DNA of 64,000 bases from Candidatus Woesearchaeota archaeon (GCA_016181265.1 JACOZP010000006.1:19962-83961), one strand, 5' to 3'; counted from the first letter of the stretch, positions 6,442 to 39,159 are shown. The notes: a model not told the origin generated them from the letters alone. Program-made: numbers and translations.

Positions 6442-6443
6442 GA

Positions 6444-6632
6444 TTATTGTTCCTTTCTTTTCAGACGAGTCATGTAACCTGCGATAATATTTCGTAATTT
6501 CTTACTTTCTACTTTCACAGTCTTGTTAGCCATTCCTTTATTAGAAGCAAAGTCGGTTGTAAACTGGTCACCGTACGTCTTAAACAATTCTTTCGTCTTG
6601 CGTTTGATGAATGTAGTTTTGATTCTTCCCAT
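6444..6632 (-). CDS. rps17e: 30S ribosomal protein S17e
   Basis: MGRIKTTFIKRKTKELF... 62 aa, typical eS17. CTTTATAAAT box about 20-28 nt upstream of the ATG. Confidence 0.85.
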   Translation of the reverse strand: MGRIKTTFIKRKTKELFKTYGDQFTTDFASNKGMANKTVKVESKKLRNIIAGYMTRLKRKEQ

Positions 6633-6784
6633 AATTCAGTTCAAGATAGGAGCTAATTTATAAAGCTTACGGCAAGAATAAACCTCTGCTTCTTCCGAAC
6701 CATAAAAACCATTTAAACCCAATTAAGCACACCAGTAGCCATTTTACAGTAATATTTATATATTTTTGACCCTTTAACGACTGC

Positions 6785-14932: not shown

Positions 14933-15295
14933 TTATTCTATTTCCTCTTCTTCTCCTTCTTTCTTCTTTTTCGGATGCTTCATATCTTCGACAGCTTTCT
15001 TGAACGCCGTCACTTGATTCTCTGTCAATGAACCAAAACGATGATACGCTTCTTTAATGTTCCGTAAGAACATCGAGTTCTCATAGAAATCACGAGGGAT
15101 GTCAAACAACTCTTTATAGGGTGATTCTGTTACGGGATCAGAAATCCGTTTCATATGACACTCTGCACAGATCGGAAATTGCCGTGAAGAATACATCACC
15201 ACCATATTCTTCTTACAGATAGCACAGCGTTGTTTGAAGCGTGGGCGAGGCATATATTGAAAAGAAGACTGTTCTTTATTAATGTTTGGCATCAT
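14933..15295 (-). CDS. Zinc-ribbon protein with acidic tail
   Basis: CAICKK...CAECH four-Cys motif. C-terminal KKKKEGEEEEIE. ATGA overlap with the upstream gene. Confidence 0.5.
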   Translation of the reverse strand: MMPNINKEQSSFQYMPRPRFKQRCAICKKNMVVMYSSRQFPICAECHMKRISDPVTESPYKELFDIPRDFYENSMFLRNIKEAYHRFGSLTENQVTAFKKAVEDMKHPKKKKEGEEEEIE

Positions 15296-17458: not shown

Positions 17459-18589
17459 TCATCCGAAGATCCGTTCTAAGAAACTTTTGCTCGCTTTCTC
17501 TTCTTTCAGCTGCACGATCAAATCTTTCTGCTTCTTCGACAATTTCGTAGGGATTTGAATATGTACTTTCACCAGCTGATCACCACGTCCAGAACCATGC
17601 AACGAGGGTAATCCCTTACTACTCATCTTAAATGTTGTTTCAGATTGCGTACCTGCAGGAATCTTTAGCATCGCCTTACCATCGATTGTCGGCACTTCGA
17701 TCTCATCACCCAATACCGCTTGCGTAAAAGAGAGTGGAACCGTCAAGAGTAGATCGTTCTCTCTACGGACGAAGATTTTATGGGGAAGGAGACGAATGCC
17801 AACATAAAGGTCGCCACTCGGACCATTATGACTACCGACACCACCTTCACCACGTACTCGTAGACGTGTTCCCTCTTCGACGCCCGCAGGAATCGTTACT
17901 TCAATCTCTTTTTTCCGCCGGATAACTCTTTCACCATGACAAACTTCACAGGAATCTGTCGCAACTTCGCCACGTCCCTGACATTCTGAACACGGCCCCG
18001 TTTGTTGAAAAAGTCCAAACGGTGTCCGTTGTGTTCGTTTCAAATAGCCCGAACCATGACAATGATGACATTGTTCAAAAGAATGCGCTCCTCTGCCACT
18101 ACAGGCATCACAGCGTTCTAATTTATTCAAGGGGATTGTCTTCTTCGTCCCAAAGGTTGCTTCCTCCAAAGAGATTTCCATCTCATAAAGAAGATCGTCG
18201 CCTCGTTGCCCACGAGCCCCTTTTCTATTCCCACCACCACCACTAAAGAGATGATCAAAGATGTCTTCAAAATCACCAAACATCCCCGACTTGAATTGTG
18301 ACATGACATCAGAATAATCAAAGCCACTATACCCAGGACCACCAGCACCCCCCCCACTACCAAGTGAGCCATGACCAAATTGATCATACTGCTGCCGCTT
18401 CTTATCATCAGCCAGTACAGAAGCCGCCTCGCTAATCTCTTTAAATTTCTCTTCGTACTCCTTTTTCTTCTCCTCAGGAGCGCGATCAGGATGAAACTGC
18501 AACGCTAATTTCTTATATGCTCTTTTAATCTCGTCCTTTGTCGCACCTTTAGAGATGCCTAGAAGTTCGTAGTAGTCTTTTTTACTCAT
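17459..18589 (-). CDS. dnaJ: Chaperone DnaJ
   Basis: J domain with HPDR, G/F region, four CxxCxGxG zinc repeats. Confidence 0.95.
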   Translation of the reverse strand: MSKKDYYELLGISKGATKDEIKRAYKKLALQFHPDRAPEEKKKEYEEKFKEISEAASVLADDKKRQQYDQFGHGSLGSGGGAGGPGYSGFDYSDVMSQFKSGMFGDFEDIFDHLFSGGGGNRKGARGQRGDDLLYEMEISLEEATFGTKKTIPLNKLERCDACSGRGAHSFEQCHHCHGSGYLKRTQRTPFGLFQQTGPCSECQGRGEVATDSCEVCHGERVIRRKKEIEVTIPAGVEEGTRLRVRGEGGVGSHNGPSGDLYVGIRLLPHKIFVRRENDLLLTVPLSFTQAVLGDEIEVPTIDGKAMLKIPAGTQSETTFKMSSKGLPSLHGSGRGDQLVKVHIQIPTKLSKKQKDLIVQLKEEKASKSFLERIFG

Positions 18590-19230
18590 CTGTTCCCCCC
18601 TTCTTTTTTCATCTGTTCTCCCAACTCTTCTGCAGGAAAAGACAACAGCGTAAACAATGAAGTTTCAATCGCGTTCATCTTCGCGAGAAATAAATCCCAA
18701 GCATCTTCACGTTCAGGATAGCGTTCACGGAGATAGGCAACTCTCTCTTTCATGGAAACAATCCTATCTTGAAAGACCCGCCAATCGGCATAATGCACGA
18801 TCTTCTCCTCCCAACTAAAATCCGTCTCGCGCGGATTACTGACTCTCTTCAGAGAAATCGCTAATTCTGGATAGATGTCACGAAAGACAAGGTAGGCTAT
18901 TTCTCCTTCATACATCTGAGGATATCTCTCTCGAAGTATCTCCCGCATTTTGATCTCGTCCTCAGAAAATTGATAGTTATGAAACTTATTTGGTTTTAAT
19001 TCCGCAAGAGCTGCTACTTTAAACAAGTCGTGGAATAAACCAAGACGATCTGCAAAGAGTACATTAACAGCAATCCCTTTTTTATACAACTCTTCTGCCA
19101 AAAAGCGGGAAACGTCACGGACCCGTTGGCAATGGGCTTTGATATTTCCTGGAACTTTATAGTCCTCAAAGTATTGTAAACTTTCCTCCTCCGCGGGAAG
19201 ATGTGCCACGATCATCATGTTTTCGCTCAT
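18586..19230 (-). CDS. HD-domain phosphohydrolase inserted between dnaK and dnaJ
   Basis: AHCQRV...LFHDLFK (H...HD), HYADWR. 4-nt overlap with the dnaJ start. Confidence 0.65.
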   Translation of the reverse strand: MSENMMIVAHLPAEEESLQYFEDYKVPGNIKAHCQRVRDVSRFLAEELYKKGIAVNVLFADRLGLFHDLFKVAALAELKPNKFHNYQFSEDEIKMREILRERYPQMYEGEIAYLVFRDIYPELAISLKRVSNPRETDFSWEEKIVHYADWRVFQDRIVSMKERVAYLRERYPEREDAWDLFLAKMNAIETSLFTLLSFPAEELGEQMKKEGGNR

Positions 19231-19277
19231 GGTCTCTAAATGAAATAAAGCGCTTCCTATTTATTTCTTTCCAGAAT

Positions 19278-19339
19278 TATAGTCATCCCCTCGGATGACT
19301 ATATGTCAACCAACAAGTCAGTATCTCTTGTTGGTTGAC
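19278..19339. repeat. Double-hairpin element, copy 1 (downstream of dnaK, upstream of HD gene)
   Basis: TATAGTCATCC-cctc-GGATGACTATA (19278-19303), then GTCAACCAACAAG-9 nt-CTTGTTGGTTGAC (19305-19339). Confidence 0.8.
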
Positions 19340-19379
19340 TTTAAATAAAAAAATAAAAAGAGGAAAGAGAAATGGGACT

Positions 19380-21245
19380 TTATTTTTTCTCTTTGAAATC
19401 AGCATCGACAACCGGCTCTTCATCACTGCCTTCTTCAGAGTGACCATGTTTCTCTGACTGTTTCTCTGATTGTTTGCCTGTGTGTTGTGCAGCTTCCTGA
19501 TACATCTTTGTTCCGATCTCCTGAACGACCTTATTCAATTCGTCAATGCCTTTCTGGATTCTCTCGACATCTCCTTCTTTACGAGCCTCTTCTAGCTCTT
19601 TCATGCCATCTTCAATCTTCTTCTTGGTACCAGAATCTACTTTATCTTTGAATTCATCCAACACTTTCTGCGTCTGATAAAGCAAAGAATCAGCATTATT
19701 CTCTGTATCAATACGTTCTTTCTTCTTTGCATCCTCTGCTTCAAACTTCTTAGACTCCTCTTTCATCTTCTCGACTTCTGCTTTAGAGAGGTTACCAGCA
19801 CCCGTAATCTTGATGCGCTGTTCTTTCCCTGTCCCAAGATCTTTTGCCGAAACGTTGACGATACCGTTAGCATCAATATCGAAGGTCACTTCGACTTGTG
19901 GTACACCTCGTGGTGCAGGAGGGATACCCATCAGATCAAACTGTCCTAACAGCTTATTATCATTAAACATAGAACGTTCTCCCTGTCCGATACGGATTGT
20001 CACTGCGGTCTGATTATCCGCCGCTGTAGAGAAGATCTGTGATTTCTTTGTCGGGATAGTTGTATTTCTCTCGATCAGCTGTGTAAAGACACCACCAAGT
20101 GTCTCGATTCCTAATGTTAAGGGAGTGACGTCCAGTAACAGGACATCTTTCACTTCACCAGCAAGGACGCCTGCTTGAATCGCTGCACCGAGAGCAACAG
20201 CCTCATCCGGATTGACAGATTTATCTCCTTCTTTGCCGGTGATCTTACGTACCAAATCCTGAACCGCAGGAATTCTCGTCGAGCCGCCAACAAAAATGAC
20301 TTTGTCGATCTTAGCCGCGGAGAGCCCCGCATCACGCAGAGCATTCTTCACCGGCGTTTCCAATCGCTTGAGGATATCGGCGATCAGTTCTTCAAATTTA
20401 GCCCGGGTTAATTCTTCTTTAATATGTTTCGGCCCGTTCTGATCAGCGGTGATAAATGGGATGCTGATCTCTACTTTCGTTTTTGTGGACAATTCGATCT
20501 TCGCTTTCTCTGCTGCTTCTTTCAAACGTTGTACCGCTGTCGCATCACGACGGAGATCGATTCCCGTAGAACGCTTGAAGATGGTAATCAGATGATCCAT
20601 AATTAACTCATCAACATCATCTCCACCAAGCATATTATCGCCGCTCGTGGATTTAACTTCAAAGATACCATCCCCTAATTCTAGGATAGAAACATCAAAT
20701 GTTCCTCCCCCAAAATCGAAGACGAGAATAGTCTGTTCTTTCTCTAGCTTGTCCAGACCATATGCTAACGAGGCTGCTGTCGGTTCGTTGATGATCCGCA
20801 AGACATTTAATCCGGCGATATCCCCTGCATTCTTCGTCGCTTGACGCTGTGCATCATTAAAATAAGCAGGAACAGTGATTACTGCATTCTTTACTGGCTG
20901 CCCAAGATAAGCTTCTGCATCCCGTTTCAATTTTTGCAGGATCATTGCAGAAATCTGTTCGGGAGTATATTCTTTATCATCTATTTCAACTTTTTCATTC
21001 GTTCCCATTTTCCGTTTGATCGAACGGATCGTGTGTAACGGATCAACAATTGCTTGGTTACGCGCAATTTGCCCAACAGTCACTTCTTTATCACGGACGT
21101 GCACGACACTCGGTGTTGTCCGTGTTCCTTCCGCATTAGAGATAATTGTCGGCTTGCCTGCTTCTAAGACTGCCATCGCTGAAAAAGTGGTACCTAAGTC
21201 TATCCCGATAGTTGCACCCGATACTGTTTGTTTTTTATCTGCCAT
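19380..21245 (-). CDS. dnaK: Chaperone DnaK (Hsp70)
   Basis: Start at the ATG at 21245, with GGAGGaaactaca upstream. [24 protein letters not shown] and VGGSTRIP signatures. Confidence 0.97.
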
Positions 21246-21267
21246 TGTAGTTTCCTCCATTAAGAGT

Positions 21268-24583: not shown

Positions 24584-24597
24584 ACATAAGAAAAAAG

Positions 24598-24683
24598 CGC
24601 CCTCGACCAGGATCGAACTGGTGACCTGTCGGTTTCTTTTCAGCGACTAACAGCCGACCGCTCCACCGCTAAGCTACGAGGGC
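24598..24683 (-). tRNA. tRNA-Asn(GUU) with 14-nt intron at canonical 37/38 position
   Basis: Hand fold: GCCCTCG-TA-GCTT/GAGC D arm. Anticodon stem GTCGG/CCGAC encloses CTGTTA[GTCGCTGAAAAGAA]A. T arm ACCAG-TTCGATC-CTGGT, then CGAGGGC + G. No encoded CCA; oligo-T follows. Confidence 0.85.
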
Positions 24684-25986: not shown

Positions 25987-26258
25987 TGTCCGCCCCGCGC
26001 TTTTTTATTATACTCAACTTGCCTCTGCTGATGATAAGAACAGAAAATGATCCCCGCTACCGCTTTCTCTGAACAACGGACGCAAATCCCTTCTTTACGC
26101 CGGTCATAATATGACTTCTTACGCTCTTTCAAGAGACGTTTCTTATTACCATGATAAAATTTAAGGAAGCGATTAACGTACTTCTTCTCAGTCTTCTCCC
26201 CTCCTTTCAATCTTGCCAGTAATTCTTTCCATACCATTAGCGTTGGCACCTCGGACAA
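25983..26258 (-). CDS. Small basic Cys/His protein, hypothetical
   Basis: CVRCSEKAVAGIIFCSYH motif. TTG start overlaps the fpg 3' end; an alternative ATG lies at 26237. Confidence 0.4.
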   Translation of the reverse strand: MSEVPTLMVWKELLARLKGGEKTEKKYVNRFLKFYHGNKKRLLKERKKSYYDRRKEGICVRCSEKAVAGIIFCSYHQQRQVEYNKKARGGQ

Positions 26259-27040
26259 TAATAAGTGCCCCGTCCACTTTGATTAATCTTTCTAATCGGA
26301 TGACTTTTGGGACAACGGTCCTTTTGATAGACAGAAAGCAGATCCTGAAATTCTCCTTTTCCATCGATGTGGCTAAAGTTTTGGATCGTCGTGCCATTCC
26401 GTTCTATTGCTAAGGTAAGAACATCTCGTAACTCCTGATATAATTTTTCTCTCTTTGAAGTATTGATGTCCTCAATTTGTGTTCGGGGATCAATTCCCGC
26501 TCGATACAATGCTTCTTGAGCATAAATGTTACCGATTCCTGCAATAAGAGATTGATCCATCAATTTTGTCTTGATCACTGCTGAAGGAAACCGTTGTAAC
26601 AAAGAATCGAATAATGTAAACGTAAATGAAGCAGCTAACGGCTCATATCCTAGCTGAGAAAAAGTATTCTCCAGTTCTTTCGCGGAAACATTCTTAATAC
26701 CCCCAAAACGTCTGATCTCATTAAACGTGAAGAAGGAGCCATCATCTAGATGAAACGTACCGGAGAGATACTTCTGATAGCTATTCACCTTGCTTCCCTG
26801 CGGAACATAATGAAAATGTCCCGTCATCCGCAGATGCGCGACAAGATAAGAATTGGTGTCTAGAGTAAAGACGATAGATTTCCCTCTTCTCATAATATCA
26901 ATGATCCTCGCCGGCAGACCTTTCTTAACAGAATGAGAAATGACTTTTGGATCTTTAATCACTACCTTCTCGATAGTCTTAAAACAGACTGTAGTACGTA
27001 ACTGACGGACAACTGTCTCCACTTCCGGAAGTTCAGGCAT
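26237..27040 (-). CDS. fpg: Formamidopyrimidine-DNA glycosylase (Fpg/Nei family)
   Basis: Start set at the ATG at 27040, which yields the obligatory N-terminal MPELPEVE. H2TH region and C-terminal zinc finger YYCPRCQ. Confidence 0.9.
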   Translation of the reverse strand: MPELPEVETVVRQLRTTVCFKTIEKVVIKDPKVISHSVKKGLPARIIDIMRRGKSIVFTLDTNSYLVAHLRMTGHFHYVPQGSKVNSYQKYLSGTFHLDDGSFFTFNEIRRFGGIKNVSAKELENTFSQLGYEPLAASFTFTLFDSLLQRFPSAVIKTKLMDQSLIAGIGNIYAQEALYRAGIDPRTQIEDINTSKREKLYQELRDVLTLAIERNGTTIQNFSHIDGKGEFQDLLSVYQKDRCPKSHPIRKINQSGRGTYYCPRCQR

Positions 27041-27091
27041 AAGAAAGAAGAACCCCACAAAATATATAAAGTTTTAGGACTTGGCTAATGT

Positions 27092-27624: not shown

Positions 27625-30600
27625 TTAAGAGCTAATCTGATTAAATACATTCTGTGCCCAATCTTTCCCGCCTTGAGCATTATAATGGGGATCATCAGTT
27701 GCTTTACTTGCATCTGTAAACAAGCTAGAGTCAATAAACGTACAATGAGGTTCAACAACTGTTTTAAGTCCAGCCACAATTGCAGCAACCTTCGGAGCAT
27801 CTGCTTCACTCTTTCTTTTAGGAGGGCCAACCCAGTAGCATTTAGAACCGCCATTAACAGCTTGTTTTGCCAAATCGGCTGCCGCTTTAATTCGAGCATT
27901 ATATGCATCATCATTACCTACATAACTTTCAATATTTGTTCCCAGTGAGATTATAACCATGTTAGGATTAAAAGAATTTTTCAATTCAGAAAGACGCGGC
28001 TTATCTTGTCCTGTTTTTGATTGTGACATCTTCCCAGTCTCATCAATAAAATCAAGGGTAGTGCCTTTTGCACAACCTACAGGGATATAAGCAGGACCAT
28101 CTACCCATTGAGCAGGTGTCGTACAACCAATCCCATATGTCTGAACGCTCGCTCCAGTACTCATCAAGAGAGAGTGTAGGGCGGAGCCATAATTTATTTT
28201 GATATGAGAATCTCCTATATGTAATATTCTCGAACCAGAACTTGTAGTTGGAGTCGACTGCAGTGCTGCCGATGAAGAAGAAGAAAGTGCTTTGCCGTTA
28301 TTCACAGAAAACGCATTTGCTCCACTTGCCCCAGCTTTATAATAATTCAGACAAAGAGTATACGCTTTGGTTAATGTTTCGTGAGAGAAACCACTACCTT
28401 GACTATAATAACTTGTGCCTTTTGGATTATAACGAATGGAAGACCACTCCCTAGCTAGCGCATCCCAAAGAGGATCCCATTTACTTACTTCGGAACCAGC
28501 AGCTTGAACCTGACCCAGTGAAACGCCACGTTTCTGTTCAACCCGAGACCAAGCCTCTTTATCTTGTTCCTCAAAACCAAAACCATTTGGAAAGAAATTA
28601 TCACAGGCATTACCCGCACAATAAAGGAATTGGTAACGACCTGCTGCAGTAGAAGTTTCTCCCCCATTCCCAAAAGGAAACCCACCGACGGGCATTTCGC
28701 CCGTTTTTCGAGGATGCGCTGATAAACTATTAATAACCCTACAACCCAACATGATATTATAACTGGAAGCTTTTTTTGCAAAACCACAAAGAGTAGTACC
28801 CTCAGCATAAGCAATCGTATCTAACAACGCTTTTTGTTCAGGAGTCATACTTTTATCTGCCGTTGCGCATTGAATAACACCAGAGGCACTATTACCCGCC
28901 GAACTCGAAACGGTTGTTGGTTGGGATTGAATTACCTGTTTCGCATTATACGCATTCGCAAATGTCATCCACGTATTCTTTGGAGGAACCCACACTTCTC
29001 CCGCATGTATTCCCAACAACCCACCAAAAACAGTCCACGCTGAATCAATATCTTTACAACGTTGTTCAATCTGACATTTCTGAGAAATTTGTTGTGTAGC
29101 GGCAGTTGTTCCCACTTGGATACCCACTCCTGAAGTGCCTCCTCCGGCTGTTCCAGAACTACTTTTTACAACAAGCTGAACTCCAAACACTTCTTTCAGA
29201 ATTTGTGCTGCGACAGCTCGATCACCGGCATCCGTCCAATGTAAGCCATCGGCGCTACAATATTCAGATCTACAGGAATTAGTCTTAGTCGGATCGAGAA
29301 GAGTAGGATAGATGTCAACTACTTTAAGAGGACTACCCGATGATTTTAGTAGTACATTAAATTGAGTAATGCAATCATTATACGCAACATTTCCTCGCGG
29401 GGGAATTGTCAAGACCACGAATTTCTTTACGCCAGCTGCCAACGCTTTTGAGATCACGCTATTTACAGAAGCAATGCCTTCTTCAGCTGCAATCTTATTA
29501 CTTGTTGCATCTTTTGCTGCTGAACACGTATTTCCAGAAGGATCAATAATCAAAAGATCTGGTTTACCACTTAAAACAGAATCTAACAGTTCTTTTTCTT
29601 GCACTTGGATTGAATAACCTTTGCTTTGGACTACAGTAGGATCTTTTGGAAATACTGAAGTTGTAGAAGAAGAACAACTGCTTCTAATATAACTCGCATA
29701 ACTGCCGCTTCCGCCGCTTTCTACCGTATTCGAAGCACCCATAACAGCAATCTTAGAATAGCCACAGTTAACTATAGAAGAATACGTCGAAGTTAAACGC
29801 AAAGTGGCCACAACGGGATAATGATCTGATGCAACACCGGTAGTTTCACCAACAACAACTGTACCTTGAGAAGCCTGAAATCCCTTATAGAAAATATGAT
29901 CTAAATCTTGCTTCCAATCCTGATACCCATATTGATCTGTTTCAGCACAGTATGGTTTTACAGGAAATGATTTAGTATGGCCATTCGGCAATTCAATAAC
30001 ACTCAAGACAGATTTAAGAGAACTAAGACGATTTAATTCAGCATTAAAATCGCCCATAACGATAACAGGTAAAACTTCTTTGGCCACGATTCCAGCCAAT
30101 TCTTTTGCCTCACTTTCAGTGAGAGAAAAATCTTGTGCATTTTTATTAGCTTCAACACTCGCTTTCACTTTTTTAGGATCAACACATTGATGTAGACTTA
30201 ACTTTTGAGCTGCAGAAGAAAGCGGTCCAGGAAAAAGATGGGTGTTATAAACTACAACTTTCTGACCGCTAACCATAACCTCAGCGCGGAGGTAGGCACG
30301 CCCCTTATTGTCAGAAGAATAAGTATTTATCTTCGCTGAATCTAACGTCCCTTTACTTTTTCTAACAAAAATACCAACTTTAAATCCAGAGCTATCATAT
30401 GTATCTATAAATTGTTCTTTCAAAAAAGTAAAAGGATCACGAAAACCATTCGCGCCTTCCCTACCTTTATTATTTCCCTCTTGAATCACCAGAATATCTG
30501 GTTGTTGTTGTTCCACCACCGCTTTAAGATGAGCTAGAATCTGAGTATAATCCCCACATTTTTCATCGTGTCCACACGCGTAACGAATATTATAGGTCAT

Positions 30601-30705
30601 TACCTTGATATCATCTGGAGAAGAGAGACCCGGAATGTAAATAATAGCATTTACAGAGAATGTAAATAATAAAGATAATAAAAATAGAATAACACCTTTC
30701 CTCAT
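27625..30705 (-). CDS. Secreted four-domain enzyme: EEP nuclease/phosphatase + SGNH esterase + lambda-R-type lytic transglycosylase (GH104-like) + SGNH esterase
   Basis: Signal peptide MRKGVILFLLSLLFTFSVNA. EEP (aa 35-304): MTYNIRY, ILVIQEGN, NTHL, GDFN, LDHIF, SDHYPV. SGNH-1 (aa 316-507): VMGASNT, PSGN, DGLHWT. Lysozyme (aa 620-790): LLDTIAYAEGT, AHPRK, STAAGRYQFL. SGNH-2 (aa 826-1026): IGDSH, LGTN, DDPHY. Confidence 0.8.
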   Translation of the reverse strand: MRKGVILFLLSLLFTFSVNAIIYIPGLSSPDDIKVMTYNIRYACGHDEKCGDYTQILAHLKAVVEQQQPDILVIQEGNNKGREGANGFRDPFTFLKEQFIDTYDSSGFKVGIFVRKSKGTLDSAKINTYSSDNKGRAYLRAEVMVSGQKVVVYNTHLFPGPLSSAAQKLSLHQCVDPKKVKASVEANKNAQDFSLTESEAKELAGIVAKEVLPVIVMGDFNAELNRLSSLKSVLSVIELPNGHTKSFPVKPYCAETDQYGYQDWKQDLDHIFYKGFQASQGTVVVGETTGVASDHYPVVATLRLTSTYSSIVNCGYSKIAVMGASNTVESGGSGSYASYIRSSCSSSTTSVFPKDPTVVQSKGYSIQVQEKELLDSVLSGKPDLLIIDPSGNTCSAAKDATSNKIAAEEGIASVNSVISKALAAGVKKFVVLTIPPRGNVAYNDCITQFNVLLKSSGSPLKVVDIYPTLLDPTKTNSCRSEYCSADGLHWTDAGDRAVAAQILKEVFGVQLVVKSSSGTAGGGTSGVGIQVGTTAATQQISQKCQIEQRCKDIDSAWTVFGGLLGIHAGEVWVPPKNTWMTFANAYNAKQVIQSQPTTVSSSAGNSASGVIQCATADKSMTPEQKALLDTIAYAEGTTLCGFAKKASSYNIMLGCRVINSLSAHPRKTGEMPVGGFPFGNGGETSTAAGRYQFLYCAGNACDNFFPNGFGFEEQDKEAWSRVEQKRGVSLGQVQAAGSEVSKWDPLWDALAREWSSIRYNPKGTSYYSQGSGFSHETLTKAYTLCLNYYKAGASGANAFSVNNGKALSSSSSAALQSTPTTSSGSRILHIGDSHIKINYGSALHSLLMSTGASVQTYGIGCTTPAQWVDGPAYIPVGCAKGTTLDFIDETGKMSQSKTGQDKPRLSELKNSFNPNMVIISLGTNIESYVGNDDAYNARIKAAADLAKQAVNGGSKCYWVGPPKRKSEADAPKVAAIVAGLKTVVEPHCTFIDSSLFTDASKATDDPHYNAQGGKDWAQNVFNQISS

Positions 30706-31268
30706 CCTTCCACCCCACTACCAATAACAAACCTCTGTGTCAATGTCGCTTGTTTCGTCAACAATGGATTCCCTACCACCAATTCAAACGTATATTCTCC
30801 AACAGGCAATCCCGAAGGAACAACAAAATAATCTTTGAACAAAACAACTTCTTGATCGTTGTCGCTCACAACATCAAATTGATACTGCTGATCTGTTCCA
30901 ACATCTAACAGCACCTCGCCAGTTGGTCCCCGAATGCGATAATTCTTCACGATCTTAATCTGTCTATGATACGTGCTGCTCTCCACGCCAAAACGATAAT
31001 AGATTGGCTGACCAAATGTAAACGTCGATCCCGGCCCGAGACAATTATACGTCTCATCAACGGTACGACAGAACGAAAATTCTTTCACGACAAGTACTCC
31101 TTCGCGCGCATACGGGATAAATTCAGCATTTAAAACCGGCTCTTGTTCTCCTTCCATCTTCACCGTCACTACATTAAATTTGATCAGCAATAAGACTATC
31201 GCACTTGTTACTACAATGATAATTAAAAAGACAATTAGTTCTATCATCCCTGTAGCTTTTGTGTTCAC
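30702..31268 (-). CDS. N-terminally anchored, pilin-like small extracellular protein
   Basis: GTGA overlap with the upstream stop. MNTKATGMIELIVFLIIIVVTSAIVLLLI, then a beta-rich 150-aa domain. An alternative ATG lies at 31247. Confidence 0.55.
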   Translation of the reverse strand: MNTKATGMIELIVFLIIIVVTSAIVLLLIKFNVVTVKMEGEQEPVLNAEFIPYAREGVLVVKEFSFCRTVDETYNCLGPGSTFTFGQPIYYRFGVESSTYHRQIKIVKNYRIRGPTGEVLLDVGTDQQYQFDVVSDNDQEVVLFKDYFVVPSGLPVGEYTFELVVGNPLLTKQATLTQRFVIGSGVEG

Positions 31269-34200
31269 GAGTTCTTACACGCATCCATTAATTTCTGTTT
31301 CTGTGCTGCATCAGTGATATCAGCAATATTGTATTCATTTGTTGCCGAACCAATCTTAGGATCACAACCTTCTCCCCGCGCAGCGCTTACACACCTATGA
31401 AGATAACCGTCACCAACATCGATAGCAAAACCGTTAGCTTTACAAGCATCCGCGCCACAACGTAACAACAAATCGTTATCCGTAAACGTGAACGGCTGTG
31501 CAACCCCTGAAGGCGGAAGCCCAGTTGATTTAACACAGGACTTCGCAGTATTTGCTGTCACGCAACGATACGCATATTGCGCATTATCTCCTCCCAGATC
31601 ATTGATAGGATAATCAGAGACAGAACATTTGTTAGAAAAACTAGCAACAGCAGTTGTTCCTACCAGAACAGCTCCCCCACAAATCCCAGCATTTGCCGCA
31701 CCATATTTCCCATCTACTTCACAAAGATATTTCTTAATCTTTTGATATTCAGTGATAGCCACTACATCTGCAGGATACGGCTGCGCAGCTTGTTCTGCCC
31801 ACATCCGATTAAAAAATCCACTTAGCGCCTCTTTAATCTGCCCTTCAAACTGTGCCGGATTATTTTTACCCAACATCACAAAGCTGGCGATGTAATAATA
31901 ATACGCCAACGCATTTTCCATATCACCCCGTCGCTGATTCAACACCGTTACGGCGTATGCTTGTGTCTGCTGATAATTTCCCGAAGCGAAGCTCTGTTGT
32001 AGCCCGCTTACTGCTGTTTCCTGTTTCTGGATGCGTACTTTCTGAGTATGTGTTGGTTTTCCCAGAGAAGTCTTCACCGGTTGATTTGCCAAATAGCAGC
32101 CTCCCGCTTCATCTTTTTCTAATAACTGGTAATTGACCGTAAATTCACGGAAGTTCTGATCCTGCGTATAGACATTCTGTTCTATCGCTTGATAGACACA
32201 ACGTCTATTTGTGTCCGTCGGATTAACACCACCAAGAACATTTTGGAACGTGAACCCGCTGCCACTAAACTGAATTTGATTAATCTCAGCGATAGCAAGA
32301 TCCACATTTCCACCTTTGGAAAGATAAGCACCATTGCGATCATAGCCGGGGGTCACGAGATTAACATTTGAAGGCACAATCAACTTAACCGTACCGGGAC
32401 TACTTCCTACATCAAAACTAAACGCAAACTTATCTCCTACCGATAACGTCGTCGGACTGAGATCAAGCTTGATCGGACCGCAATTCAATCCACTATCAGG
32501 AACCGAAACCAAAATTGGCGCGCTACCGCCGAACATACTTTGCTGCACCGTACCAAGAGTATCAATTACATATTGCGCACCTTGCACGTTCTGTGCAATC
32601 TGACGTGGCGGCGCCTCCGCCAAGATGCCCGGTACTAATGGATTGACTGTTCGTTTCAAACATTGACCTTTTCCATCCGTATTCACATGCGCACGCACTT
32701 TGATCTCATCGCCTAAAACAAACAGATTCGGCGTATCACAAGGCATCCACGTTTCAGTCTTCTTATTCCAACAAGAGACGTATGGATCTTCTAAAAATGC
32801 TCCCCCGTAACCGAAGAGCGAATACAATTCCGGACACTGATAGCGTCCCGTCGTCAAGTCAACACTGCACGACAACGCGCTTGGCGGAGAAACATCGCTG
32901 ATCGGAAAGTAATAGACTGCTTTATTCCCCTGCAGGAAATCACTTTCGACGCATTTATCATAATTATCTTTTTCGCTCGGATCGAGATATAATTCCATGA
33001 CAACATGATCATAACGATACGGTGCCGTTACCCGTTGTGGTGATTCTAACGGGACAGAAAACATCTGTGCAGGAGGAAGATTGAATCCCGATGCTAACTG
33101 CTGTTCTTTCTGCGCTTCAAAAGCGGCTCCCGTATTACTCACACTCAAACAATCACAAGTTTTACCACCACAAGATTCATCTACATTCGGATTCCCTCTA
33201 TCCCCCGGACCGATACATTTCAATTTTAAGTTCCAACTCTTTACTTTACAACCGGGGAAAATAGTTGCACCAACATTATAATTAAAGATCGCCATCTGTT
33301 TCGTCGGATCATAACTGCTCAATTCTCGCGTTGCCGGAGCGACAACCGGGAATGTTTTCGACGGGAATGAATACGCCGCATCCAATAAGAAGTCTTCACT
33401 AAATAGCGGGAAGTCATAGCCAAATGCAGCAAGACAGATCGATTGAGCAAAACCCTGAGTTCCGCCTTTAAAATATTGATTTAAGACCGCATTACCATAA
33501 TCTTTACGTGCATCTTCAAACGAAGAATCTAATGCCTTCGTCATCGAGCTAAAGCCGCCCGAGATGATTGTACCTGCCTCTGCAATCGGACCTTCTTTAC
33601 CAACAGGGTCAAACGTCGTAGGGGTACAACTATTCCCTGCTAATGCAGCAATCCCTTGGTACAATAATCCACAGACTTGTTGAGTGAACAATGTCTTACA
33701 CATCCCCGCATCATGCAAGCCTGTATATTTCGCTTCGACCAAACATGCTTGCACTCCTGCCAACATACTCTGCAGCATGCGTAGATTTTTCAAGATGCCC
33801 GAAAGACAAACCGTCTGGAACGTGCCGATGATTTGCGTGTTTGGATTGATCTTTGGTTCTTTCTCTTCTGCCCGTAAATAATCAATCAGATAATTCGCAC
33901 CAAATGCTCCCGAGAAATCTCGACCGGCATAATAGCGCTCCGGTGGATAGAACGTCCCCGTTGTTCCGCCAGTCTCACTATATACTTGCGCTTGCTGGTA
34001 TGACCAGGCTTCCTGCGTCCCGGTATTTACATTCTTCGGCGTCCCCACCCGCATCGAACCACTATCGGCTATTTTTGCTGGTGTCGTTTCAGGCATGCAA
34101 ACACACTGCTGTAGCTGAGGATTACCAGCAGCATCACGCACGAAATTATTATTTGCATCACGCTTGATAAAACAATTACTGGAATACCCCGCAGCGTATC

Positions 34201-37027
34201 GTCCTTGTTGCAGAGGCTTTCCATCTTTATCATAAAACAATCCGTTCTTCTCAGTATAACATCCTTGTACCCCTTTAACATCGTCGACTCGATAACCTGG
34301 CTTCTGCGGATTGTTACAGATCGCTTGACAAGGTTGATCTTTATAGATAATAAAATTCTCTGATCCCTGCGGTTTATATGCAATCAGGCGCGGACCATAC
34401 TTCACAAATGCCGTCGATGCTACCGCATACGTATTTCCTATATGTGTTAGATAGTAAAACCCTTTCTCTTGGTCAGCTTCTTCCATACTATCTTTCGGAC
34501 GCGTCTGGATATACAGATCAGAATCCTTTGTCTGCCAACAGACATTCAAAGTATTGGCATCGATTCCTGGATCCAAGAGAATCTTATTCTTAGAGACAAA
34601 ATCTTTACAATTTTCGATTGGCATCAATGGCTCGCCGCTTCCCGTCACTGCACACTGCTGCTGGGCCTCAACACGTTTCGCAATGTCTTCACGTTCTTTA
34701 TCTTCTGTCCATCTTGCCGGCACAGCACGGCAGAACGCTCGATCCCAGCTCCACTTGTAAGCTTGATCCATCACCGCTTCAAACTTCCAGGCATTTGCTG
34801 TTGAAGGACAACGCTTCTCTAGCGAGACAGCATTCCACGCATCGCTTCCCGAGCCTGCTTGCAAAGCGTCAAGTAATTCTTTTGGCCCATTGGTAATACC
34901 TGCTTCTTTCCAATCATTCAACGTCTCTTCGAGGTAATATTGTTCAGGATGTTCACAACCTTTTGCTTTCGCATCTCCTACTGCTTTAAAAAAAGAAAAG
35001 TGATACTCTAATTTAGCAGAAAATATACGGACCCAGCGCGCAACAGTCCGCAGCATAAATGAGGCCATTCCTGTTATGCCTGTGACAATATACGCCTGTT
35101 CAATATATGGAGTGACAGTGCTAATTTGCGTGATTGTCCAGTTAAGTGTATCAATACCTTCATTTGCCAGAAAATCCGGAATCATATCTTTGCTATCGAT
35201 AGGGATATCGACAAAATAACTAAGATCGGTACAGGTATTCTGCACTTTTGTCTGACCATAAACAGCATTACCCGCCGCATCACGTTTCTCTACATCCTGA
35301 TATGTTACCTGAATCTTAAGAGGGAAGACAACTTGTCTATTTTTCAGTTCATCCCAAAAACTCTCTTTCGCATCGCTGAGATCTTCTCCCGGATGCAATG
35401 TCCAGCTTGCATAGACCGCAGATTGGTCTGGATTTGGCAATGCCCGCGTCGGACGTGAAGGTAATAGCTTACAACCGATATTAAACGTATCATCTTTTGC
35501 CATCCCTGCCGTACAAGCTTTCTCGATCTGGATGCTCGTTACTTTTGCCCCCTGTTCCAAGATTTTCCCATCACTAGAACGCACAGCGATCCCTTGACCA
35601 TTATAATTCAATTTAAAGACGGCTTGGACATCTTGCCTTCCTTGATCAACAAGTTGTGGCACGAGACGCAATGGTGCCTGAAACTCCGGAACAGATTCAA
35701 TCGCAAAATCAAGATTGCTAGAGAAACAGCTCTGGATCAAGACTTGCTGCTGCCAAGAAACACTTCGTCCTGCTTTATCTTCAGCGATCAGATAGACATA
35801 ATACGTCTGTTGCTGAGCCCCTTCGCCGAGAGGATAAATTTTAATCTTTACCAGATCAGAAGGAATTTCCTTCGGCGTCAATTTTTCGAGAGAGATATCT
35901 GTAATGGAAGACGTAAAAGAAACATCATCAAAACGGAATTCTCCTTTTTCATTTGTCGTCACCACTTCTCGCGGCCGATCGAAAGCTGGAGTAAACTCTG
36001 TCGGCAATGGCTTATAGACATAGAGATACACTTTTGCACCTGGGCTCGTCGTTCCGCTGATTGGCGAAGACGCACGTCCCTCGTAAAATTCTTTACCTCG
36101 TTCAAGTTCTGCTTTGATCGCCGGAGGCTTGGCACTGACTTCAATCATCACTTCTTCCTCCGTTAGCCAACCGGCATTATCCGTCAATTTCAGCGCAAGC
36201 TTGTTCACTCCTTCTTGCAGCGGGACAGAAGTGTCGATTTTTGCTCCCTCACCTTTAGAAACGGATTTATTGTTTACAATAATTTCATAGTTCACACTTT
36301 CTGAAACGGTCAACACCAACTTATAGGAATTCTCCGTCACAAAAGGAGGAATACTTTTCAAATCGACACTCGGTTTCTGTGCATCCGCAAACACATCTCC
36401 CGATACGTTCTGCTCATTTCCTGCCTCATCACGAGCAGTAACGACGATATTGTTCTGCGTATTCTCCGTAAGCAGCACATCCGTAAACATAAATGTTCCT
36501 TTCGTAGCATCGACCTCGCTGCCCAGCGCCGTTGCCGTGCCAGATTTTTTGCCATTAACAAGAACAGTCACCACCGTACCGACTTCCGTCTCTCCGGAAA
36601 ACGTCCAGCGTGTCCCCGCAACCCTCTCTGGAAAGTCAACTTTTAATTCTGGTGCGGTCGTATCTGGAGCAGGTGTTTCAAAGGAATAGAATTTACCTTC
36701 GTTATTATCTACAATACCATTACTCTCCACAGAGTAGATATATTTTGTTTTTGACATCAACCCACTGATCTGTAAGCTATGGCTGTTCACTATCTTCGCA
36801 TCACCGACTTTCTTTAGAGAAGAGGCATCCACTCCATAATTAACAAATGAATCTGCCGCCTCGTCTGTTGTCCAATGGATCGTCGCGCCGGAAGCGGTCA
36901 CCGGCTCAACCGTAACGCCGGAAATCTCCAGAGCCAAAGCAGCCGGAAGAAAGACGAAGAGCAGGATTATGAAGAGTGCCTGCATCTGCAACAGCTTCCG
37001 TCCTCTCTTTAGATTCTCAGTCATCAC
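31265..37027 (-). CDS. Giant (1920 aa) secreted Cys-rich protein: N-terminal FN3-like and Ig-like domains, then about 1500 aa with no recognisable family
   Basis: Signal LLQMQALFIILLFVFLPAALA. ISGVTVEPVTASGATIHWTTDEAADSFVNYG is FN3-like. TVLVNGKKSG...IVVTARDEAGNE is Ig-like. About 45 Cys by my count, all after roughly aa 430. Confidence 0.7.
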   Translation of the reverse strand: MMTENLKRGRKLLQMQALFIILLFVFLPAALALEISGVTVEPVTASGATIHWTTDEAADSFVNYGVDASSLKKVGDAKIVNSHSLQISGLMSKTKYIYSVESNGIVDNNEGKFYSFETPAPDTTAPELKVDFPERVAGTRWTFSGETEVGTVVTVLVNGKKSGTATALGSEVDATKGTFMFTDVLLTENTQNNIVVTARDEAGNEQNVSGDVFADAQKPSVDLKSIPPFVTENSYKLVLTVSESVNYEIIVNNKSVSKGEGAKIDTSVPLQEGVNKLALKLTDNAGWLTEEEVMIEVSAKPPAIKAELERGKEFYEGRASSPISGTTSPGAKVYLYVYKPLPTEFTPAFDRPREVVTTNEKGEFRFDDVSFTSSITDISLEKLTPKEIPSDLVKIKIYPLGEGAQQQTYYVYLIAEDKAGRSVSWQQQVLIQSCFSSNLDFAIESVPEFQAPLRLVPQLVDQGRQDVQAVFKLNYNGQGIAVRSSDGKILEQGAKVTSIQIEKACTAGMAKDDTFNIGCKLLPSRPTRALPNPDQSAVYASWTLHPGEDLSDAKESFWDELKNRQVVFPLKIQVTYQDVEKRDAAGNAVYGQTKVQNTCTDLSYFVDIPIDSKDMIPDFLANEGIDTLNWTITQISTVTPYIEQAYIVTGITGMASFMLRTVARWVRIFSAKLEYHFSFFKAVGDAKAKGCEHPEQYYLEETLNDWKEAGITNGPKELLDALQAGSGSDAWNAVSLEKRCPSTANAWKFEAVMDQAYKWSWDRAFCRAVPARWTEDKEREDIAKRVEAQQQCAVTGSGEPLMPIENCKDFVSKNKILLDPGIDANTLNVCWQTKDSDLYIQTRPKDSMEEADQEKGFYYLTHIGNTYAVASTAFVKYGPRLIAYKPQGSENFIIYKDQPCQAICNNPQKPGYRVDDVKGVQGCYTEKNGLFYDKDGKPLQQGRYAAGYSSNCFIKRDANNNFVRDAAGNPQLQQCVCMPETTPAKIADSGSMRVGTPKNVNTGTQEAWSYQQAQVYSETGGTTGTFYPPERYYAGRDFSGAFGANYLIDYLRAEEKEPKINPNTQIIGTFQTVCLSGILKNLRMLQSMLAGVQACLVEAKYTGLHDAGMCKTLFTQQVCGLLYQGIAALAGNSCTPTTFDPVGKEGPIAEAGTIISGGFSSMTKALDSSFEDARKDYGNAVLNQYFKGGTQGFAQSICLAAFGYDFPLFSEDFLLDAAYSFPSKTFPVVAPATRELSSYDPTKQMAIFNYNVGATIFPGCKVKSWNLKLKCIGPGDRGNPNVDESCGGKTCDCLSVSNTGAAFEAQKEQQLASGFNLPPAQMFSVPLESPQRVTAPYRYDHVVMELYLDPSEKDNYDKCVESDFLQGNKAVYYFPISDVSPPSALSCSVDLTTGRYQCPELYSLFGYGGAFLEDPYVSCWNKKTETWMPCDTPNLFVLGDEIKVRAHVNTDGKGQCLKRTVNPLVPGILAEAPPRQIAQNVQGAQYVIDTLGTVQQSMFGGSAPILVSVPDSGLNCGPIKLDLSPTTLSVGDKFAFSFDVGSSPGTVKLIVPSNVNLVTPGYDRNGAYLSKGGNVDLAIAEINQIQFSGSGFTFQNVLGGVNPTDTNRRCVYQAIEQNVYTQDQNFREFTVNYQLLEKDEAGGCYLANQPVKTSLGKPTHTQKVRIQKQETAVSGLQQSFASGNYQQTQAYAVTVLNQRRGDMENALAYYYYIASFVMLGKNNPAQFEGQIKEALSGFFNRMWAEQAAQPYPADVVAITEYQKIKKYLCEVDGKYGAANAGICGGAVLVGTTAVASFSNKCSVSDYPINDLGGDNAQYAYRCVTANTAKSCVKSTGLPPSGVAQPFTFTDNDLLLRCGADACKANGFAIDVGDGYLHRCVSAARGEGCDPKIGSATNEYNIADITDAAQKQKLMDACKNS

Positions 37028-37028
37028 G

Positions 37029-39029
37029 TTATTGCACCCCGAACTCCGGGAGAGGCAAATGCTTGCTCTTCTCCTCTAATTCAGCATATAACCCAAAGAG
37101 ATCAGTATCAGTTCCGGTCTCTTCACTGATGATATGAATCGTCAATCTTTGTGCTCCGGCTAATTGATCCCAAAGGACAGTCCAATTTCCTTTGTAGCCG
37201 CCGATAAACTCCTCACCTCTGAGTACGGTCACATCAACCGCATACATGAAATCCGCTTTTGCCAAAAACTCGAGAGGCTGCTGTGAAATGATATCAGAAG
37301 AAAGCTCAGGCGAAATAATAATCATTCCATCTTCGAGAGGTTGGTTAGTTTGAGGATTACGTTGTGCCGATCGCAGCTTGATGATCACAGTTTCATCTTT
37401 GGCAAGAGGAATTCCAGCACTAAGTTGATCGTCACCAAGAAGAGTATGCTTCAGGATACTTATATTCAACGAAGGGAATAGATGAACAGGAACCAATTGA
37501 ATATCCGCACGTACACCAGCTTTAACGACCAAGCTTGTCCAACCATCTTTATACCCTACTTTCTGACCACGAATGACTGCATTGGCACAAAATGGAACAT
37601 TCATTTGTCTTGCCGCCACATCTCCCACACCAGCATAATCATATTCGGTCTGTCCTAAAGAGCATTGATATTGCAGACAACTATACGTTACATTCACTCG
37701 CTCCACTGGCTCAGTATAAGAAACACCCATCCCGTTATCTACTAATTCTGCAGTCGTCACGGTAATCGGCGTGTTCCGTGTATCGCAGAACTGTTCATCA
37801 GAATAAGTGCTTAGCCCTTGCAAAGGCACCGCAGGGATAATATCTTTCCGATCCGGAATATTTCGTTTGAGATGAACAGTTAGCGCCGTCTTGAACAGAT
37901 AGCCCGTCGTCTCGTCCCGCAAAGTTATCAGGACAGGATAGCTAACATCGTAACTAAACTTCCAACTCTGTGCACAAAAAGCGGAGAGCAATGGATTTGA
38001 TCCGGCTGCCAAAGGCGAACTCTTCATCGTACTTCCGCTGCGCGGATGGACATCAAAAGTGAACGGATAACTAGCATCATAATGAAAGTCCACAGTCACG
38101 CTCTTTTGGAGAAGATCATCTCCTACATCCCAGATATAATGATTTTGATAGTAAGGAAGTTCCTCAGGGAACTCTACAAAACTGGTACCCTTCACTTTTA
38201 ACTGACCAATATTTACGCGCAAGAGATCTTGCATTGTCTGCTTTACCGTATCTACCTTCCATTGTTTGGAAGAACAGCTTAACTCGAACCCGACAACGGG
38301 AACATTTGGATGTTCTAATGCAATGAGATCTTGAGTGATATCTTCCAGCTTTAGGTCGCGTAACTCTACATCCGTAATCCTCACGGCAGTATCATAAAGT
38401 CGTTTTAATTTAACAGGCGACTCCGCACCATGATCAATAAGTTGCTGAATTATCTCCCCCTGCTTGTCTTGTACTTCAATATCCCAATGAACCGCAAAGA
38501 TCACTTTAGCATCGACAATATTTGTATCGGCGGTGATATCACTTTTTTCCACAAGATTATAAGTCTGCGTAAACGCACCTGGCCCAAAGACACACTCACG
38601 AAGATTTTGTTGAATATGAGAATCGATCTGCACTGTTACTGTCTGTAATGAAGGGACGGCCCGCGTCGTGCCATACGCCCAATACGGAACAGCGGTGAAC
38701 GGTGATGTTTTCAGATGGACATAACCATTTTGTGCGATCTCCTGCGGCAAATCAACATAGCCACCTTGTTCTCCGATACGAGATAAAGCCTCTTCACCTA
38801 ACTTCTTGATGCAATTAGCGATGTAATCAGCGACGGGACCTTTTCCGGTCGTAACGAGTTCCTCCGGTTTTACGGTCAGCGTCTCACGCGTGACAAAAAC
38901 AACGACGACCAATGCTAATACGAGAATAATACCAAGAATGATAAAAAGAGTGACTTGCCCTCGTCGAGGGAAGATAAAAGCATGAGAAATAAGACTACGA
39001 GTATTACATCTCTTCCTCTTTTGATACAT
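37029..39029 (-). CDS. 666-aa extracellular protein with archaellin/pilin-like class III signal motif
   Basis: Start moved to the ATG at 39029, about 24 nt downstream of TTTATATA. MYQKRKRCNTRSLISHAFIFPRRGQVTLFIILGIILVLALVVVVFV. Remainder has no known domain. Confidence 0.6.
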   Translation of the reverse strand: MYQKRKRCNTRSLISHAFIFPRRGQVTLFIILGIILVLALVVVVFVTRETLTVKPEELVTTGKGPVADYIANCIKKLGEEALSRIGEQGGYVDLPQEIAQNGYVHLKTSPFTAVPYWAYGTTRAVPSLQTVTVQIDSHIQQNLRECVFGPGAFTQTYNLVEKSDITADTNIVDAKVIFAVHWDIEVQDKQGEIIQQLIDHGAESPVKLKRLYDTAVRITDVELRDLKLEDITQDLIALEHPNVPVVGFELSCSSKQWKVDTVKQTMQDLLRVNIGQLKVKGTSFVEFPEELPYYQNHYIWDVGDDLLQKSVTVDFHYDASYPFTFDVHPRSGSTMKSSPLAAGSNPLLSAFCAQSWKFSYDVSYPVLITLRDETTGYLFKTALTVHLKRNIPDRKDIIPAVPLQGLSTYSDEQFCDTRNTPITVTTAELVDNGMGVSYTEPVERVNVTYSCLQYQCSLGQTEYDYAGVGDVAARQMNVPFCANAVIRGQKVGYKDGWTSLVVKAGVRADIQLVPVHLFPSLNISILKHTLLGDDQLSAGIPLAKDETVIIKLRSAQRNPQTNQPLEDGMIIISPELSSDIISQQPLEFLAKADFMYAVDVTVLRGEEFIGGYKGNWTVLWDQLAGAQRLTIHIISEETGTDTDLFGLYAELEEKSKHLPLPEFGVQ

Positions 39030-39052
39030 CACTTTTGAAATGGTCTGAGAGT

Positions 39053-39060
39053 ATATAAAG
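39053..39060 (-). promoter_or_regulatory. TATA box (TTTATATA on minus strand) for the 4-gene operon
   Basis: 24 nt upstream of the ATG at 39029. No SD in between, consistent with a leaderless transcript. Confidence 0.5.
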
Positions 39061-39159
39061 ATTATGCTGAAGTGAGAACAAAAGAAACTCAGAAAAAACA
39101 GAAAAACAATAAAAGAAAAACACCAAAACAAGAATTAACATAATTGCATTTAACAGAGC

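Follow-up and report, generated by a model that had tools for sequence, protein, structure and literature searches.

The window analysed here is a stretch of 64,000 nucleotides from Candidatus Woesearchaeota archaeon (GCA_016181265.1, JACOZP010000006.1:19962-83961), and its main subject is a gene for a secreted multidomain enzyme at 27625–30705 on the minus strand, the strand to which the coordinates of all its domains below also refer. An earlier reading, here called the original prediction, had described the product as one secreted archaeal protein in which an endonuclease/exonuclease/phosphatase (EEP) domain, two SGNH domains and a lytic transglycosylase of the phage lambda R type are fused. 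The open reading frame (ORF) starts with ATG, encodes 1026 amino acids (aa) and has exactly the boundaries given there. Every motif quoted for it was found in the translated protein, and the four domain calls, the predicted secretion and the archaeal origin were all correct. From the N-terminal to the C-terminal end, the order is signal peptide, EEP, SGNH1, a Cys-containing linker, GH104 and SGNH2. Residues 1–20, MRKGVILFLLSLLFTFSVNA (30646–30705), are the only hydrophobic, transmembrane-like stretch of the enzyme, with a helix at 2–19 in the model; they look like a Sec-type signal peptide, and the enzyme is hence predicted to be secreted. No second copy of any of its modules was found elsewhere in the window. 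A 100% identical protein at NCBI is named 'endonuclease/exonuclease/phosphatase family protein [Candidatus Woesearchaeota archaeon]', so the present database annotation is solely that of an EEP family protein. The host is archaeal, since GatD (with GatD_N) and PAC2 are encoded in the window and the identical NCBI protein comes from Woesearchaeota. A contig from a candidate phyla radiation (CPR) bacterium was considered and ruled out by GatD, PAC2 and the naming of Woesearchaeota in the NCBI and GTDB record titles.

The central domain (residues 618–795; 28321–28854) had been aligned by eye to lambda R, and this alignment turned out to be real. Pfam and NCBIfam gave no match at residues ~600–800, even for the excised segment at E<=10, and the assignment to GH104 therefore rests on the PHROGs, on a PDB profile and on the fold. 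PHROG_90, 'endolysin', matches the domain at E=2.9e-13. Compared with the PDB as a single sequence, the domain matches 1AM7/3D3D, lambda lysozyme, at E=0.002, and in this match LLDTIAYAEGT (residues 627–637) is aligned on LDMLAWSEGT. A profile of six orthologs reaches 3D3D/1AM7 at E=2.4e-17. Two further motifs shared with lambda R, AHPRK and STAAGRYQFL, lie at 663–667 and 685–694. An AlphaFold2 (AF2) model made from 66 sequences has a core with a predicted local distance difference test score (pLDDT) of 86–96, and its top fold match in the PDB is 3D3D_A (template modelling score, TM, 0.74 on the target; probability 1.0), followed by 1AM7 and a cyanophage baseplate protein. Glu635 aligns with the catalytic Glu19 of lambda R and is invariant in alignments of 6, 24 and 66 sequences; A687, A688, G689, Y691 and Q692 (AAGRYQ, 687–692), Q714 and W754 are also invariant. 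The lysozyme-like fold and the catalytic Glu, on which the original prediction had staked this domain, are both in place. Taken together, four independent lines (PHROG, single-sequence PDB match, PDB profile and modelled fold) show a predicted lytic transglycosylase domain of the lambda R type.

A profile search with the domain gave 836 relatives, whose names, where given, are 'muramidase (phage lysozyme)', 'lysin' and 'GH104 family protein [Ca. Woesearchaeota]'; P0089 is a relative that bears GH104 in its name. With a single sequence, a search of 5.8 billion proteins gave 10 weak matches and missed the orthologs, and it was the profile search that recovered the relatives. By tblastn, 255 phage genomes with endolysin annotations were found, at no more than 33% identity. 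The archaeal domain is homologous to lambda R over the entire lambda R chain and has the same fold, and the catalytic Glu in A-x-x-EGT and the HPR and AAGRYQ motifs are common to both. Lambda R, however, is a cytoplasmic, holin-released endolysin of 158 aa and a single domain, whereas the archaeal domain sits inside a 1026-aa protein, predicted to be Sec-secreted, with three further enzyme domains. The identity is ~25–30%, and the archaeal domain has insertions, a TGEMP..GFPFG loop and a longer C-terminal region with Cys.

In a scan with the hidden Markov models of Pfam, the curated cut-offs were passed by the EEP domain and by both SGNH domains. SGNH1, of the GASN type (residues 316–510; 29176–29760), matches PF00657 at residues 319–502 (E=2.5e-7, 31.5 bits against a cut-off of 23.6) and has the motifs GASNT (323–327), PSGN (389–392) and DGLHW (486–490). 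Ser325, Gly391/Asn392 and His489 are invariant among the orthologs, and the model of the domain has a pLDDT of 74–96. SGNH2, of the GDSH type and DUF459/PatB-like (residues 824–1026; 27628–28236), matches PF13472 at residues 856–1012 (E=1.4e-11, 45.7 bits against 32.9) and is also above the cut-off for DUF459 (E=2.6e-7, 30.6 bits against 27.2). Its motifs are GDSH (831–834), (L)GTN (921–924) and DDPHY (1004–1008), with Ser833, Asn924 and His1007 invariant. Against the PDB, the SGNH2 profile found 8GR2, a DUF459 structure (E=3.1e-5), and 8TLB, PatB of C. jejuni (E=4.5e-5), in blocks III–V only, and for OatA it gave non-significant E-values only. PatB is a peptidoglycan O-acetyltransferase whose site of action is the acetyl group at the MurNAc C6. 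The two domains are not recent duplicates; BLASTP between them gave nothing significant.

The EEP phosphoesterase domain (residues 33–305; 29791–30609) is recognised by Pfam PF03372 at residues 36–295 (E=6e-12, 46.2 bits against a cut-off of 24.5). Its motifs are MTYNIRY (36–42), VIQEGN (73–78), NTHL (154–157), GDFN (218–221), LDHIF (268–272) and SDHYPV (293–298), and its catalytic residues are N39, E76, H156, D219, N221, D269, D294 and H295. This set is kept across 14 members of the subfamily, with E76A in P0141 as the sole exception, and judged by these residues the domain is catalytically intact. The domain model is confident, and its best folds in Foldseek are TDP2, Nocturnin and ANGEL2 (TM 0.65–0.74, E ~1e-11), and not DNase I or sphingomyelinase. 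Against PDB sequences nothing significant was found, the best being TDP2 at E=0.24, and the scores of nuclease families were weak (PHROG CdtB, E=0.008; NCBIfam PRK05421, far below the cut-off). With the TDP2/CCR4/Nocturnin clade the domain shares the fold and the metal-dependent catalytic residue set, but the identity is ~15%, the archaeal EEP has a helical insertion of ~45 residues at ~164–208, and it is predicted to be extracellular, with relatives fused to murein hydrolases.

When 1.84 billion representatives were searched exhaustively with HMMER, just 36 EEP relatives came up at E<=0.001. Nine non-self relatives were scanned for domains. SLT was present in four of them (P0138, P0140, P0141 and P0151) and Peptidase_M23 in P0169, and the five nearest relatives to which Pfam could assign a domain all have a fusion to SLT or M23. 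The ortholog P0137 shows the complete GH104 arrangement, in P0142 and P0143 a C-terminus without an assigned domain comes after the linker module, and in P0159 the EEP domain alone was detected. The original prediction had called the EEP an attached nuclease, a label that fits poorly with a tiny subfamily that has no close nuclease relative and is mostly fused to murein-cleaving domains. Because the subfamily is nearly confined to such fusions, it is unlikely that the EEP is a general nuclease that is merely attached. The fusions point to a phosphoester substrate in the wall no less than to DNA. A phosphodiesterase of wall polymers is a possible but tentative guess for its activity; a nuclease is a guess of the same standing, and action on other substrates is only slightly less likely.

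Upstream of GH104 lies the Cys-containing linker module (residues 541–590; 28936–29085), visible as dense invariant columns in the ortholog alignments. It has the pattern C..C..ID..W ... VWVP ... W..F..Y, is more strongly conserved than any other stretch of the enzyme and, in the relatives, recurs directly upstream of domains of the GH104, SLT and M15 types. It belongs to no Pfam family, and the pLDDT of its model is only about 50. Its profile matched only designed Kelch repeats in the PDB, through repeats of a G-x-V-W/Y-V motif; no one stretch was significant by itself, and the match was rejected as spurious. The module is a candidate for a targeting or docking element.

The search with the whole protein gave six sequences, the query and five others at 41–55% identity, and P0137 was added by the EEP search. 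P0002–P0004 have the same four domains as the window enzyme, P0005 lacks the C-terminal SGNH, and P0006 has a different, alpha/beta-hydrolase-like N-terminal domain. In the shorter P0017 and P0018 (~500 aa) an SGNH1-type domain is followed by the linker and GH104, and in P0020 a GDSH-type SGNH takes the first place in the same series. As these three proteins carry the core alone, the pairing of putative esterase and lysozyme is, from the sequences, the conserved unit, and the EEP and the second SGNH are additions. Other GH104 domains of the DPANN-type clade were seen in two Nanoarchaeota-labelled proteins, P0022 and P0025, fused to an SUMF1/FGE-sulfatase domain (PF03781), and in stand-alone forms of ~215–250 aa (P0019, P0021 and P0023; the contig of P0021 is archaeal and carries GatE). 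These fusions and stand-alone forms suggest that GH104 has diversified within DPANN.

The enzyme gene is the last in a run of genes on the minus strand, and its start codon overlaps with the stop codon of the gene before it. This gene (30702–31268, minus strand) encodes a 188-aa protein with an N-terminal membrane anchor, a partner that was conserved in every related locus examined and has 43% identity to its counterpart in locus L008. Before it lies the gene of a conserved giant partner (31265–37027, minus strand), a Cys-rich secreted protein of 1920 aa with fn3/Big-like domains in the N-terminal part and a variable C-terminus of Cys modules, which is 35.5% identical to the L008 giant over 1418 aa. 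The cluster is headed by a protein of ~650–700 aa (37029–39131, minus strand) without a Pfam match, which is conserved in L001–L004 and has a look-alike of a pilin-like class III signal peptide. In this 700-aa ORF the sequence 'RRGQVTLFIILGIILVLALVVVVFV' is found ~55 residues in and resembles a class III (type IV pilin-like) signal peptide of archaea, and translation may in fact begin at a Met farther downstream. The small protein of 188 aa opens with 'MNTKATGMIELIVFLIIIVV', which is likewise pilin-like. On account of these pilin-like N-termini, the cluster may build a pilus-like structure or another surface filament.

The variability of the giant was seen at its C-terminus. The giants of the window and of L005 (21–4070) end in Cys modules, and that of L006 (27–4373) has an extra end of ~350 aa; Pfam finds no match in it, its 'VAHSFGG' motif is alpha/beta-hydrolase-like, and this variation is reminiscent of the C-terminal swapping of polymorphic toxins. 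A Cys module of ~54 aa (..IDxGDGYxHxC....C..........Y.I........L...C) forms the C-terminus of the window giant (31265–31429, minus strand). The same module ends the enzyme orthologs P0003, P0004 (residues 1055–1108) and P0137 and is found inside the L005 enzyme (4633–6870); BLASTP gives an E-value of 1e-16 at 46% identity for it, and the window's own enzyme does not have it. The module may serve enzyme and giant in common, for docking or sorting, and so link the two.

The position of the enzyme in the cluster is occupied by different enzymes in different loci. In L006 this place is taken by a 699-aa protein that has an N-domain of the P0006 type, the linker (67% identical) and Peptidase_M15_4 (E=5e-14) in place of GH104. 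In L008 it holds P0151, an EEP with an SGNH2-type SGNH, the linker and SLT (GH23), beside a homologous giant and small protein, and the L008 contig is archaeal (Rpb4, L21e, Nre). In L001 a 923-aa Amidase_2 protein (E=1e-15) is encoded directly downstream of the enzyme. The same gene order was found around P0002 and P0004, with the same flanks (PAC2, bPH_2, Fpg and, farther on, GrpE-DnaK-DnaJ), and also in two Woesearchaeota genomes of GTDB. A scan of contigs with linker-module patterns gave two Woesearchaeota loci only, a result that informs the synteny and not the taxonomy of GH104. The enzymes of the syntenic genomes share just 41–48% identity with the window enzyme, and that the flanking synteny persists at such divergence argues for a chromosomal, vertically inherited and stable locus. 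An origin from a prophage or mobile element was ruled out by the synteny with these housekeeping genes across divergent genomes.

It is likely that the gene encodes a murein-degrading multi-enzyme that this woesearchaeon, a member of DPANN, secretes, and it is probably a tool for breaching bacterial walls. To our knowledge archaea have no murein, and the original prediction had accordingly presumed a bacterial target. The bonds cut by amidases and M15-type peptidases and the target of SLT are present in murein and not in pseudomurein or chitin, and pseudomurein has a beta-1,3 linkage to N-acetyltalosaminuronic acid and L-amino acids only. M15_4 in L006, Amidase_2 in L001 and SLT/GH23 in L008 bear out this target, and they provide the strongest argument for murein as the substrate: the variants of the slot would act on glycan, stem-amide and peptide bonds that do not occur together in pseudomurein or chitin.

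What the data show are the identities of the domains, their intact catalytic residues, a locus both conserved and polymorphic, and an archaeal host. The substrates, the order of action, the contact dependence and the biological role we infer as follows. The GH104 domain would cleave the bond between N-acetylmuramic acid (MurNAc) and N-acetylglucosamine (GlcNAc), MurNAc-beta-1,4-GlcNAc, via Glu635 as lambda R does, and leave 1,6-anhydro-MurNAc, for which a free C6-OH would be needed. Lytic transglycosylases require the free C6-OH of MurNAc and O-acetylation precludes their action, and the C6 is also the attachment site of teichoic acids and secondary polymers (PMC6174289). The SGNH domains would most likely be O-acetyl esterases that remove the C6 O-acetyl groups which bacteria use as a block. 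The EEP would be an active metal-dependent phosphoesterase in the same wall context; our preferred guess is that it strips phosphodiester-linked substituents (teichoic acids, secondary wall polymers) that also occupy the MurNAc C6, and equally open is that it acts as a nuclease on released or extracellular DNA. The giant Cys-rich surface protein and the small membrane-anchored protein are encoded, and probably translated, together with the enzyme, and the three genes form a conserved module whose enzyme slot is cassette-like: relatives have GH23 SLT or M15 in it, or an added Amidase_2. Such a slot of murein cutters suggests that the module is a cell-surface apparatus to breach the walls of bacterial hosts or prey. 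The enzyme may be a weapon, as the original prediction had it, or may serve to attach to or penetrate a host, or to scavenge. In its most complete form, the proposal is that of a machine clearing the MurNAc C6: the two SGNH domains would take off O-acetyl groups, the EEP, as a wall-polymer phosphodiesterase not known before, would cut phosphodiester links of teichoic acids or secondary polymers at the C6, and GH104 would thereby gain its free C6-OH. The enzyme would then serve as exchangeable effector in a contact-dependent, polymorphic surface apparatus of DPANN, encoded by three conserved genes (giant adhesin-like protein, small membrane protein and effector), that pierces the walls of bacterial hosts; that all of this holds at once is rather unlikely.

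The earlier logic of an esterase working with a lytic transglycosylase is chemically sound, and it stands in so far as the SGNH/linker/GH104 core recurs in relatives. The SGNH of P0151, which is homologous to SGNH2 (E=2.1e-26), is fused to GH23, so that SGNH domains are found with two families of lytic transglycosylases (GH104 and GH23); together with the PatB-like character of SGNH2, this lends indirect support to a coupling with de-O-acetylation, in which the SGNH domains may act as esterases on O-acetyl-murein. As in the Ape1/PatB system, these would be SGNH-fold enzymes at the MurNAc C6, functionally linked to lytic transglycosylases needing a free C6-OH. The bacterial enzymes, however, are separate periplasmic proteins that regulate the bacterium's own autolysins, whereas in the window enzyme the lytic transglycosylase and two SGNH domains form one polypeptide, in an organism that has no murein itself. 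The part of the logic that did not stand is the likeness to Ape1 itself (4K3U), for which the SGNH2 profile gave a non-significant E=0.17 and the SGNH1 profile no match; an analogous function may exist all the same.

This lack of a close Ape1 relative is one of several points that weigh against an enzyme directed at bacterial murein. We know of no bacterial host for this archaeon. No peptidoglycan-binding domain (LysM, SH3, PG_binding) was recognised in the enzyme by Pfam. The Asp at His-3 of SGNH1 varies among the orthologs (D, E or G), and the closest solved structures to the SGNH1 profile are generic acylhydrolases (4PPY, E=7.9e-6). The whole-protein model has a predicted TM-score (pTM) of 0.43 and linkers with a pLDDT below 50, and its inter-domain geometry is unreliable. 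PatB, moreover, is a transferase and not an esterase (PMC12148441), and some Woesearchaeota have been proposed as partners of methanogens (as mentioned in PMC9723730). The last point against is that the nearest folds of the EEP, those of TDP2, Nocturnin and ANGEL2, act on nucleic-acid-related or nucleotide phosphoesters, which makes a nuclease-like role possible.

The same folds speak for an alternative in which the enzyme is freely secreted and neither a contact weapon nor a tool to penetrate a host, digesting the peptidoglycan of dead bacteria and extracellular DNA to supply a metabolically reduced archaeon with amino sugars, peptides and nucleotides, with the EEP as a true nuclease. According to published reports, DPANN archaea rely on nucleotides and cell compounds that they scavenge (PMC8204110, PMC9723730), and neither a membrane anchor nor a wall-binding domain was found within the enzyme itself. 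The tight coupling of the gene, with overlapping stop and start codons, to the giant and the membrane-anchored protein across divergent genomes is not what such a free enzyme would be expected to show, and the Cys module common to some orthologs and the C-terminus of the giant suggests that enzyme and giant are physically associated at the cell surface. An EEP subfamily almost confined to wall-lytic fusions would also be unexpected for a general nuclease, and we find scavenging unlikely as the explanation.

It is also conceivable that the SGNH domains, the EEP or both are non-catalytic and serve as carbohydrate- or envelope-binding modules that target GH104. Targeting would need another source in an enzyme without a classical wall-binding domain, the catalytic Asp of SGNH1 is not conserved, and PatB-like SGNH domains bind the glycan strands of peptidoglycan (PMC12148441). 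At ~25–55% identity, however, both SGNH domains keep their Ser, Gly/Asn and His and the EEP keeps its eight residues, which argues for retained catalysis in both and makes pure binding modules very unlikely. Very unlikely, too, is another GlcNAc-type polymer as the target (the pseudomurein of a methanogen partner, chitin or the archaeon's own surface glycans), remodelled by SGNH and EEP, for although a life of Woesearchaeota with methanogens has been proposed (cited in PMC9723730), lambda lysozyme binds chito-oligosaccharides (title of PDB 3D3D) and a canonical murein-binding domain is lacking, the slot variants carry Amidase_2, an M15 D-Ala-D-Ala-type peptidase and an SLT replacing GH104, and the nearest solved relative of SGNH2 is a murein-specific enzyme.

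Returning to murein as the probable substrate, the idea of murein-degrading enzymes in DPANN is already established, and it is the architecture and the locus that are new. Secreted murein-type lytic transglycosylases, SLT/GH23 proteins, have been noted in Woesearchaeota and Pacearchaeota since 2013–2015 as possible tools against bacterial hosts (PMC8204110, PMC9723730, PMC10936187). The large SLT/GH23 proteins of DPANN (fam00969, 2021; Vigneron et al. 2022; Castelle 2015 AR20) resemble the window enzyme in lineage, secretion and proposed binding and degradation of walls, and relatives of the window enzyme with SLT for GH104 occupy a homologous locus. Unlike fam00969 (Castelle 2021), the window enzyme has no match to PF01464 and carries GH104 with SGNH and EEP instead. 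Experiments by Strock et al. 2025 (PLoS Biol, PMC12352652) showed bacteria to be killed by archaeal peptidoglycan hydrolases, in which Nanoarchaeota were found to be rich. Their hydrolases (e.g. the M23-PG_binding_1 proteins of Halogranum) are secreted by archaea, murein-specific and modular, with domain-shuffled architectures prominent in Nanoarchaeota, and in these respects the window enzyme, if correctly read, is alike. It differs in being of the lytic transglycosylase type and not a peptidase, and its gene is chromosomal and syntenic, not patchy or plasmid-borne. Their survey criterion was a Pfam catalytic domain together with a Pfam wall-binding domain (PMC12352652), and the window enzyme falls outside the set because neither is recognisable in it. 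In the open-access literature we found no description of an archaeal GH104 beyond a database name, no EEP-SGNH-lytic transglycosylase architecture and no module of giant, small protein and effector.

Parasitism or predation of DPANN archaea on bacteria, beyond that on other archaea, is an open question that now rests on a few SLT annotations. The locus offers a concrete and testable molecular candidate, predicted to be Sec-secreted and with every domain open to assay. Across the relatives, its effector slot samples the bonds of murein, glycan (GH104/GH23) and peptide (M15), with an enzyme for the stem amide (Amidase_2) alongside. Pfam-based surveys of archaeal peptidoglycan hydrolases miss enzymes of the GH104 type. 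The rare EEP subfamily and the short linker travel with wall-lytic domains, and either of them could be a new cell-wall activity. De-O-acetylation and glycan cleavage in one enzyme would be of applied interest against lysozyme-resistant, O-acetylated pathogens.

Some other genes of the window are worth mentioning. At 15292–16518 (minus strand) a 408-aa protein matches Poly-gamma-glutamate hydrolase (PF05908, E=1.5e-31) and has no obvious N-terminal signal peptide in the translation; this family is phage- and Bacillus-associated and acts on gamma-glutamyl bonds, which are also present in murein stem peptides. Genes of bacterial type encode an S-adenosylmethionine synthetase of the bacterial/eukaryotic type (PF00438/PF02772/PF02773), DnaK-DnaJ and Fpg (8941–10134, 17459–21260 and 26237–27058, all on the minus strand), which fits the extensive bacterial gene content reported for Woesearchaeota. 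A tRNA-Asn(GTT) at 24597–24683 (minus strand) is 87 nt, above the standard tRNA length, and may contain an archaeal-type intron. Two proteins of 894 and 486 aa, at 58389–61073 and 56834–58294 (both plus strand), have sub-threshold Pfam matches only (Nup98-type autopeptidase S59, NPCBM_assoc) and may be additional surface proteins.

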